From assembly GCF_045037415.1 (NCBI RefSeq), contig NZ_CP173438.1: DNA of 64,000 nt, one strand, 5' to 3'. Made by a program: the position numbers. Shown piece after piece: positions 38,001-41,000 of this stretch (positions within the stretch are counted from its first letter, which is position 1; every line of letters starts with the position of its first letter). This stretch comes from Escherichia coli. GTDB lineage: Bacteria; Pseudomonadota; Gammaproteobacteria; Enterobacterales; Enterobacteriaceae.

Positions 38001-41000
38001 GGCATTATCACCCGTAATAACAAGCTCACCGTTATGATTATATTGCCACTTCGTTGCGCCATCTGCGCTCACCCCGTCAAGGGCAACCGTGTTATTCGCT
38101 TCATCAATTTGCCAAATATTAATAGTTGCCTTACGGCCATTGCTATCTTGTAGAGAAATAGTCCCGTCAGCATTCTCGGTATAAGTAAAAACTGAATCGC
38201 GAATAGTTAACGTTTTTGCTGTTTTATCGAGGATAACGTCATTATTAAACGAAATTGGTTTGGGAGGCGTCGGGGTATCATCCGAACCGTCGTCTGGTAT
38301 TATCTCATCTCCGCCAGGAGTTGGGGGAACTGGAGTGTCGTCTGAATTATCATCAGGTGGAGTTGGTGGAAGTGGAGAATTATTGCGATGATGATGATCA
38401 TCATCGTCGTTTAGTTCCACTATGGCTAAGGCTGTGATTAACGCAGTAGCAGCACCTGTGGCAAGCCATGGCATCAGGTTCTGTTCGACTACAGGGGAGC
38501 ATTCAGAGGGTAAGCGTTTAAGCTCTTCTGGACTGAGTTTTCCAGGGTCTGCCGGACAAGTCACATTGGTATTTTTCTTTTCACCTGTGGTGGTTTCTAT
38601 CTCTGTGATATCTGCCGCCCAGCCCTGACCACTCAGAGCCAATGCAATACAGGCTGACAATAGAGTTTTCCTTTGCATAATAAATCCTTCTGGCGAATAT
38701 AAAGAAGGTCGGATGCCTTAACCCAACCAATTAATCAATCAATTAAAACATAGAGGACATTCAATATTGCCAGTAGATTGGCACCTAATCAAACATATTC
38801 TCTGACAATCTGTAATTATAATTTGAGTGAATGAATACACCTGCATAATATACAACTTGCGTATATTATATGAATTATAGATTTAAATGGCATCAGATAA
38901 GCATTCATTTGATAAAAAACGGTACAAATCAATACTCAAATAAATAAATCAGAGCAGAAGCATAATTCTGCTTTATAATTAAAGGGAAAAATAATTATAT
39001 AACTGTTACTGTTTCGGTCGCAGATTCTCATCAAACACCAGGCGTTTCCTGCCAGGTTCAACTTCCCGCAATGGCTCGACTTGATGCAACGTCTGCTTAC
39101 AACGAGTCACCAGCACCTGATGCCCTGCTTTCTCAATGCCAGCTCCTGCTCGCTGAGTTCACGAATCGCTTTCGCCGGGCTGCTGACAATCAAGTAATTA
39201 GTCGGCATTTCTGCTTTGGCTTTCACAAATGCGGAAACACCAACAATACTGTTCTCACCAATCACCACACCGTCCATCACTACCGCGTTAATTCCCACTA
39301 ATGTATGGCGGTGGTTAATGCAGCCGTGAAGAATAGTCGGAGATACAGGTATGTCAGTACGTAGTTTGTACCGAATGTTTGCCGATAAAGGTTTGGTGGT
39401 CGCGCAATATATTCGTAACCGTCGTCTCGATTTTTGTGCAGATGCGATTCGCCATGCCGCAGATGATGAAAAACTGGCAGGCATTGGCTTTCATTGGGGA
39501 TTTTCCGACCAGAGTCATTTTTCAACGGTATTTAAACAACGCTTTGGGATGACGCCAGGCGAGAATCGGCGTAAATTCCGCTAACTAATTCGCGTTGCAT
39601 GTACAGCAACGCGAATTAGTTAAAACAGATATTTGACTATGCATTTTTCAGGGCGAAAGGCAATTTGACAGGCGTTTTTGAATAATCATCTTGTTTCCGG
39701 AAAATAGATTAATCGCCTTCTCCTGTAGCGTTATCCCGATATTGCGGCTTTACTATTAAAATTTTCGCACCCATTTACCGTTTATCCCTTGTACATATTC
39801 CCCGGGTTTGGCCCGTTCTACGAGCTTTTGCCCGGCGAGTTTCGCGATATCATCTACCGACACATTATTTTGCTTTGCCAGTTGTTGATAGCTCGCTTTA
39901 CGTTCGGCATTAATGTCGGTTACTAATTTCTCAGTTTCAGCATCTGTTTTCAGCGCAACCAGATAACCATAAAATGTTTCGCCTACCCGCCCCTGAGTTC
40001 TGGCTTCATCCAGAGTCAATGCCATTACATTGCTGCTTACCAAGCCAACAAGAAATGCACAAAGAAGTAATGTTCTTTTCATCATCACCTCAAAAAAGAT
40101 CGCTACGGGTCTCAAGCAGCTCTTCGACATCTTTGTCTGCCTTGATGATGATCTCATGCTCAATTTTAACGTTCATATTGATAGTGATCGGTTCCTTAGG
40201 TGCAGCGACTTCAATACGAGGCGTACAGCCAACCAGCATAAAAGATGACGTCAACGCAGCCAGTAAAATTTTCATTGTTTATCCTCACACTCTTTTCCTT
40301 GCGGACAGTCATTTCCCGGCAGACGCGCGTTCTGCTCCAGCCATGCCTGGAGATTATCGCCAAAGCGTAAACTGCGCCACAGCGTAAAAATATTCTCTTC
40401 ATGATGGTAATTAAGATTTACCGTACCGCTTTTACCATCAACGCGACTGGTACCTGTAATATTGGCCTGCATGGTTAATAAACCGAGATTATCTAAATTA
40501 ATTTTTGTCGATGAACGGCTAATTTCCATATAGCGCAACCAGTTAATTGCTGAACCCGCGGTCATATTGTCTTTCACCACCGCATCTGCGGTGTCTTTAT
40601 CCAGCCGCAAGGTCATTGGTCCGCTATTTGCCAGCCAGCCGTCTTTCACTATCCATTTTTCATTGTTTAACCATAACGGCAGTGCACCACTAAATGCCCC
40701 GGACATGGCGAATTGTTTCGGATTAACGGCGCTAACCAGTTCGCTGGATGAGAGATTATTCAGTCGCAACAGTGCCGGGTCATGTTGCGGCATACGTAAT
40801 TGTTTCATCAGCACGTTACCGCCTAACACATCGACACTAACATCAGTCAACAGCAATGGTTCTTCTTCAGTCCACGGATAACGCCCTTGCAAATCAGCCG
40901 TAATATTTTTCGCTGTCACCAGATTAATCACTTCGGCAATTCGCAACGTAACGGGGCCGCGAGTCCCCAGATGCCAGGCTCCATCGGCAAAACGGAAAGG

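Follow-up and report, generated by a model that had tools for sequence, protein, structure and literature searches.

The probable scar of an 18-kb deletion between paaY and feaR in Escherichia coli ST131

Between ydbL and ydbA, the chromosome of E. coli K-12 carries feaR, feaB, tynA, paaZ, paaABCDEFGHIJK, paaX and paaY. In the stretch of E. coli DNA analysed here (64,000 nucleotides of contig NZ_CP173438.1, RefSeq assembly GCF_045037415.1; hereafter the window), two gene fragments stand in their place. Was the cluster lost from this lineage or did it never arrive, and if it was lost, by what kind of event, and how long ago? A sequence-only reading of the window had described the fragments as the ends of paaY and feaR, joined by a deletion. 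We find that both flanking genes are indeed truncated and derived from paaY and feaR, with blastn against K-12 and NCBIfam profiles in agreement.

The first fragment is the 3' end of paaY, a pseudogene on the minus strand (39006-39336) that corresponds to K-12 paaY nt 251-591, from codon 84 to the stop codon, with 90.0% nucleotide identity. PaaY is a thioesterase with a hexapeptide-repeat/gamma-carbonic-anhydrase-like fold. Against the PaaY equivalog TIGR02287 the remnant aligns in two segments, 83-153 (E=1e-28) and 160-192 (E=5e-10) of 192 profile positions, and its 100 bits lie below the whole-protein cut-off of 319.6. It adjoins ydbA, as in K-12. Codons 1-83 are missing and the reading frame is broken, and the remnant is therefore no complete in-frame coding sequence. 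The frameshift previously noticed near the end of the fragment is caused by a 10-bp deletion on the minus strand between 39123 and 39124, seen in a MAFFT alignment, in tblastn and in the list of open reading frames; the bases lost are K-12 'gtacgcatga', at about paaY nt 464-473. Because this small deletion shifts the frame, the remnant is split into open reading frames at 39107-39484 and 39006-39116, and tblastn returns it as two segments in different frames.

The second fragment is the 3' end of feaR, a pseudogene on the plus strand (39333-39584) comprising the last 252 nt of the gene, with 96.8% identity to K-12 feaR nt 655-906. FeaR is an AraC/XylS-family activator of tynA and feaB. The remnant keeps 83 of 301 codons and is thus incomplete: the N-terminal sensing domain is missing, and the AraC-type DNA-binding domain is represented by its C-terminal part alone. 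In the FeaR equivalog NF007243 the remnant covers positions 222-303 of 303 (E=1e-43), scoring 149.5 bits against a cut-off of 199, and it adjoins ydbL in the same synteny as in K-12. The earlier identification of a C-terminal FeaR fragment holds, but its length of 77 codons does not: homology runs from 39333 and covers 83 codons plus the stop codon, and 77 is the count from an internal ATG at 39351. A GGAG motif lies 8 nt upstream of this ATG, and expression of the 77-codon frame as a stand-alone helix-turn-helix peptide is conceivable but doubtful. A scan for promoter-like sites serving the remnants returned only weak 9-of-12 consensus matches, which have no value as evidence.

The genes on either side are intact. 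On the left is the autotransporter gene ydbA (30162-38678, minus strand; 2838 aa), the K-12 neighbor of paaY, and on the right is ydbL (39756-40082, minus strand), the K-12 neighbor of feaR. The 3' surroundings of both truncated genes were also kept. A perfect 17-bp inverted repeat at 39582-39622 (arms 39582-39598 and 39606-39622, assigned to no strand; found in the sequence and by self-reverse blast) begins at the feaR stop codon and is intact; it is probably a terminator, so far putative, common to the convergent feaR and ydbL. A terminator-like hairpin, recognized by consensus scan only, remains 3' of the paaY stop codon (38953-38972, minus strand).

To place the junction we compared the window with K-12 MG1655. 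By blastn, 38000-39336 aligns with K-12 1466064-1464721 at 88.9% identity, an interval that holds the 5' end of ydbA, the intergenic region and paaY from nt 251 to its stop codon. The next part of the window, 39333-40400, aligns with K-12 1446629-1445562 at 96.3% identity, an interval that holds feaR nt 655-906, ydbL, ynbE and the end of ydbH. The two alignments overlap at 39333-39336, and base-by-base comparison sets the junction, a feature of no strand, at 39331-39337. The existence of the junction had been called correctly, but not its position, which was given as about 39335-39350.

The sequence at the breakpoints is that of a microhomology deletion: where the intact reference has a direct repeat, with one copy at each breakpoint, the window keeps a single modified copy. 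In K-12 the repeat is GGATAGC, with one copy in paaY and one in feaR at a spacing of 18,095 bp, and the same heptamer is present in the intact feaR allele of HS-02 and the intact paaY allele of L002. The window has a single copy, GAATAGT (39331-39337), that differs from GGATAGC at two of the seven positions, and the certain microhomology is only 4 bp, namely ATAG at 39333-39336, the bases that match both K-12 parents unambiguously. No IS element, IS ends, target duplication or filler DNA is found at the junction, where paaY and feaR abut directly. Both breakpoints fall within coding sequences and no integrase gene was found next to the junction, a configuration that does not fit excision of a genomic island. 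Using hybrid window/K-12 queries that span each breakpoint, we found no intact cluster with the window's own paaY/feaR allele among 5,426 complete E. coli genomes; the intact genomes that came closest resemble K-12 (90.2% for the paaY query and 98.3% for the feaR query).

Relative to MG1655, 18,095 bp are absent, comprising feaR nt 1-654, feaB, tynA, paaZ, paaABCDEFGHIJK, paaX and paaY nt 1-250. The sequence-only reading had put the interval between the breakpoints at roughly 18 kb, in accord with this measurement, and its list of genes (paaX, paaA-K, paaZ, tynA, feaB and the 5' part of feaR) needs only the addition of the 5' 250 nt of paaY. It had also taken the difference as a deletion here and not an insertion in K-12, and the positions of the remnants bear this out, with paaY beside ydbA and feaR beside ydbL-ynbE-ydbH, both syntenic with K-12. 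Since remnants of paaY and feaR occupy their K-12 positions, the lineage formerly had the cluster and lost its interior.

Copies of the paa genes elsewhere in the genome would have undermined this account, and we found none in the 64-kb window or, for paaA and paaK, in 68 junction-bearing genomes. A tblastn search of the window with all 17 proteins of the K-12 interval returned nothing beyond the two remnants and aldA, a paralogue. For the genomes, a chimeric query consisting of the junction region and K-12 paaA hit one place per record, and paaA was found elsewhere on the chromosome record in 0 of the 60 top junction-bearing genomes, including EC958, at megablast sensitivity. A second query, the junction followed by 500 nt of paaA and 500 nt of paaK, likewise found neither gene elsewhere on the chromosome records of eight junction-bearing genomes sampled across the ranking (blastn sensitivity); this query hits one place in junction-bearing genomes and four in intact genomes. 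The absence thus applies to 68 of 563 junction-bearing genomes and to two marker genes, at the DNA level only. On plasmid records, the paaA/paaK queries hit only 10-13 places in the whole collection, in hosts that may or may not carry the junction.

Because the roles of paaABCDEFGHIJK, tynA and feaB are established, a loss of growth can be predicted: we infer that strains with this junction would not grow on phenylacetate or 2-phenylethylamine. With no tynA or feaB, 2-phenylethylamine and tyramine are predicted not to be converted to the corresponding acids, and with no paa genes phenylacetate is predicted not to be degraded. A search of the accessible literature for growth of ST131 on phenylethylamine turned up no usable data.

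We next asked how widely the junction is distributed. The window and E. coli O25b:H4-ST131 EC958 have 100.000% identity over 41,051 bp (18700-59750). The junction region (38700-39750; 1,051 bp) is complete in 563 of the 5,426 complete E. coli genomes, and its carriers include the ST131 strains EC958, JJ1886, JJ1887 and SE15. Identity over the paaY-side flank is 99% or higher in every one of the 563, and across the 5,426 genomes this junction type is confined to a near-clonal ST131 group. Strain 21319, with 98.6% identity in the junction region, was considered as an older, distant carrier and rejected, being an ordinary ST131 strain with a 15-bp intergenic deletion. In RefSeq, both fragments are annotated as pseudogenes in EC958 and in strain S12, the minus-strand piece as 'phenylacetic acid degradation protein PaaY' and the plus-strand piece as 'helix-turn-helix domain-containing protein, incomplete, missing N-terminus'. 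The EC958 pseudogenes (EC958_RS29590 and EC958_RS26965) are identical in sequence to those of the window, with spans equivalent to 39006-39334 and 39333-39584; the EC958 annotation gives no breakpoints, microhomology or size of the loss, all of which were worked out here.

Based on these data, we propose that the ST131 ancestor had feaR-feaB-tynA-paaZ-paaABCDEFGHIJK-paaXY between ydbL and ydbA, in a K-12-like arrangement, and that one illegitimate, RecA-independent recombination joined a short direct repeat in paaY to its copy in feaR. The intervening 18,095 bp would have been lost in this step, the repeat being GGATAGC in K-12-type sequence and at least ATAG in the ST131 lineage. Replication slippage or microhomology-mediated end joining could be responsible, as either would give the observed junction. 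Two dead gene ends would then have stood back to back, and the paaY end would have decayed through the 10-bp frameshift and an excess of amino-acid changes. We hold a single deletion of the feaR-paaY interior in the lineage ancestor to be very probable, and short homology, somewhere between 4 and 7 bp of it, to be its likely specific mechanism. RecA-independent deletion between short direct repeats is classical in E. coli, and the present case resembles it: the intact reference carries the repeat at each end, a single copy is left, and no mobile element is present. The present case is unlike typical slippage-type events in its length, 18 kb being long, and unlike the classical case in that the copy kept does not match the K-12 repeat exactly.

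The paaY remnant also carries a record of age. Compared with K-12 it has dS 0.20 and dN 0.054 (ratio 0.27); over the same codons an intact allele, from strain 13C1079T, has dS 0.21 and dN 0.012 (ratio 0.06), and ydbL has dS 0.17 and dN 0.014. Non-synonymous changes in the remnant are therefore in about fourfold excess while its synonymous distance is ordinary for the locus, a comparison that depends on few changes (13 versus 3 non-synonymous in about 110 codons). Because of this excess and of the 10-bp deletion, the remnant points to a long period without selection, and hence to a deletion that would be old and not a recent event within ST131.

An old deletion need not have occurred in a direct ancestor of ST131. 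It could have taken place in an unsampled E. coli lineage, from which the pdxI-ydbA-paaY'-'feaR haplotype entered the ST131 ancestor by homologous recombination. The long-decayed paaY remnant fits this history at least as well as a deletion in the direct ancestor, and, among the genomes compared, all carriers of the junction type belong to the near-clonal ST131 group. In addition, the segment 29090-39336 (pdxI-ydbA-paaY') is 78-89% identical to K-12, as against 96.5-96.9% on both sides, and other B2 strains have a different ydbA-side allele that is 89% identical. However, ydbA is a hypervariable, repeat-rich surface-protein gene that can account for such divergence, and we attribute the divergence of the segment from K-12 mainly to it. 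Taken alone, pdxI is 93.5% identical to K-12 and 97.9% identical to CFT073, and intact E. coli alleles at the locus span a range of dS that includes the value of the paaY remnant. A donor outside E. coli is not required: we rejected a foreign source of the pdxI-ydbA-paaY' block as unnecessary because pdxI is close to K-12 and CFT073, the low identity comes from the ydbA repeats, and at synonymous sites the paaY remnant has diverged just as far as intact E. coli alleles have from one another. On balance, import from another E. coli lineage seems rather unlikely to us, and it would alter where the deletion took place and not what kind of event it was.

The deletion could also have been made by an IS element, in one step or several, for instance by insertion, deletion of the adjacent DNA and later loss of the element. 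IS-mediated loss is known at this locus, where in strain E2386 copies of IS1 abut a truncated feaR, and the ST131 strains 5506 and TUM13770 have IS1 or ISKpn26 within the 38700-39750 junction region. However, in the window the two fragments join directly at the short shared sequence, with none of the traces that an element might leave (IS ends, target duplication, filler), and we consider this route improbable. Short-homology deletion in the ST131 ancestor is the account that we retain.

How does this junction relate to other alleles at the locus? Besides the ST131 type, which we call type A and which keeps 252 nt of feaR and part of paaY, there are at least three further junction types. The first, paaX'-'feaR, occurs in isolate K12a and in CT30; in K12a paaY is whole, paaX is reduced to 153 nt and feaR to 207 nt, and ydbA is missing. 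The second, in E2386, is an IS1-bounded deletion that extends to ynbB; the truncated feaR beside IS1 retains 312 nt or more. The third is a clean absence with no remnants, in HS13-1 and MS10711, in which the positions equivalent to window 38992 and 39692, just outside paaY and feaR, are joined; Nissle was assigned to the clean absence by its match pattern. Like type A, all three are without the catabolic genes that separate ydbL from the ydbA/pdxI side in intact strains; in two of the three, as in type A, feaR is cut near its 3' end, at different breakpoints. Derivation of one deletion type from another was considered and rejected: the kept lengths of feaR and paaY are mutually incompatible, and the types therefore represent independent deletion events. 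From the rise in matching places between queries, we estimate that about 3,130 of the 5,426 genomes (58%) have paaA and paaK. An evenly spaced sample gives rough frequencies of about 3,100 intact genomes, a few hundred of the paaX' type and a few hundred with clean absence, these values being estimates from sampling and not counts; 734 further genomes have no match to the region.

The clean absence is relevant to the opposite polarity, in which the cluster was never in the lineage, absence is ancestral and K-12-type strains gained an island of about 19 kb. Nissle, HS13-1 and MS10711, all B2, are without the whole paaY-to-feaR block, and the junction of 38992 with 39692 resembles an empty site. 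In the window, by contrast, 331 nt of paaY and 252 nt of feaR are still present, each placed and oriented as in K-12. Since the ends of the island genes are present, this is no empty site, and the idea is refuted for the ST131 lineage, for which we consider it highly improbable; an empty-site reading could apply only to the Nissle-type clean absence. An assembly or sequencing artefact has a negligible chance of being the explanation and is refuted by the occurrence of the same junction in 563 independently assembled complete genomes.

That some E. coli lack this cluster has been reported before. In the strain panel of Leimbach et al. (2017; PMC5422975), the B2 and E genomes were without the paa determinant feaRB-tynA-paaZABCDEFGHIJKXY (b1384-b1400). 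Elovaara et al. (2015; PMC4640556) obtained tynA-positive PCR results for 3 of 45 uropathogenic isolates and for none of the 11 neonatal-meningitis or the 28 O157:H7 isolates; they also described a 33-kb gap around tynA in CFT073. In the tabulated results of a neonatal metagenome study (PMC4819403), tynA, feaB and paa genes are tested for association with E. coli strain groups, with P values that carry no direction. The absences in the first two studies concern the same gene block, with the same predicted metabolic consequence as the ST131 scar. They are given as presence/absence scores or as the larger CFT073 gap, however, and not as the ST131 junction, which with its two gene remnants is an event separate from the remnant-free absence in Nissle, HS13-1 and MS10711. 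The loss of the cluster is thus an ordinary lineage-specific deletion, already known from annotation and publication. What we add are the exact breakpoints, the microhomology, the 18,095-bp size, the confinement to ST131, the independence from the other junctions and the signs of decay.

The repeated loss of the locus invites an adaptive explanation. At least four junctions, concentrated in ExPEC/B2 backgrounds (ST131 and the Nissle type), could reflect selection and not drift, as a pathoadaptive loss of 'antivirulence' genes; a possible cost of the cluster in the host would be H2O2 derived from amine oxidase, or intermediates of the phenylacetate pathway. We regard this explanation as doubtful. 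If it were true, the ST131 scar would be one old, stably kept example.

For pandemic ST131, the scar accounts at the base-pair level for a lineage without the catabolic route for phenylethylamine, tyramine and phenylacetate. It also provides a lineage marker, as a PCR product across 39331-39337 would be given only by the ST131 deletion type. More broadly, the repeated, independent losses of the locus in E. coli bear on niche adaptation in the species.

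The window carries a second lineage-specific gap at 28431-29942, 10 kb from the paa junction at which the paaY and feaR remnants meet. Here azoR (28431-29036, plus strand) directly adjoins pdxI (29076-29942, minus strand), whereas K-12 has ydbD-ynbA-ynbB-ynbC-ynbD between these genes (about 7.2 kb; K-12 1475074-1482254). Among complete genomes, 561 share the azoR-pdxI adjacency at 99% identity or higher, and this set is essentially that of the genomes with the paa junction.

Comparison with K-12 also identifies genes that are intact in the window and decayed in K-12. The gapC homologue (20563-21564, plus strand), annotated in ST131 strain EC958 as a type I glyceraldehyde-3-phosphate dehydrogenase, is an intact open reading frame of 333 codons, while K-12 gapC is a pseudogene. 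Similarly, ydbA (30162-38678, minus strand) is an intact autotransporter gene encoding 2838 aa with tandem repeats of about 294 nt (98 aa) each, while the K-12 copy, interrupted by IS2 and IS30, is a pseudogene. RefSeq product names for ydbA disagree between near-identical genomes and include “hypothetical protein”, “pectate lyase-fold domain-containing protein”, “BigA/YdbA N-terminal beta-barrel domain-containing protein” and “EntS/YbdA MFS transporter”. The last name is plainly an error, apparently from a confusion of YdbA with YbdA. Antisense to the ydbA repeats, we find a 1139-aa open reading frame (34734-38153, plus strand) and, over the same interval and strand, a ladder of identical 67-aa open reading frames. 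These arise because the repeat lacks stop codons in that frame, and they are almost certainly spurious.

Further decayed genes lie at window positions 18700-18942 and about 50865-53050, according to the EC958 annotation of the identical sequence (1-243 and 32166-34351 of the EC958 locus, L009). In this set, trg is truncated, a metal ABC transporter permease is frameshifted, and fragments of an integrase and a DUF1627 gene adjoin ttcA; K-12 has the Rac prophage at this site.

Same-locus stretches from other E. coli genomes (L002, L004, L005 and L006) reveal several independent losses of the feaR-to-paaY block. The junction types include a fusion of paaX and feaR remnants, an IS1-bounded junction and a remnant-free absence (window-equivalent 38992/39692) in Nissle, HS13-1 and MS10711. 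In the E. coli B strain C2566, only the feaR side is matched, and paaA, paaK and paaY have no match. Two ST131 genomes carry insertions in the equivalent of window 38700-39750, IS1 in strain 5506 and ISKpn26 in strain TUM13770, both of which fall in an already dead region. Lastly, in HS-02, a genome with an intact feaR, the annotation of feaB shows a frameshift and an internal stop (locus L007, 1-1011). This frameshift is a non-deletional path to inactivating a pathway that has elsewhere also been lost by deletion.
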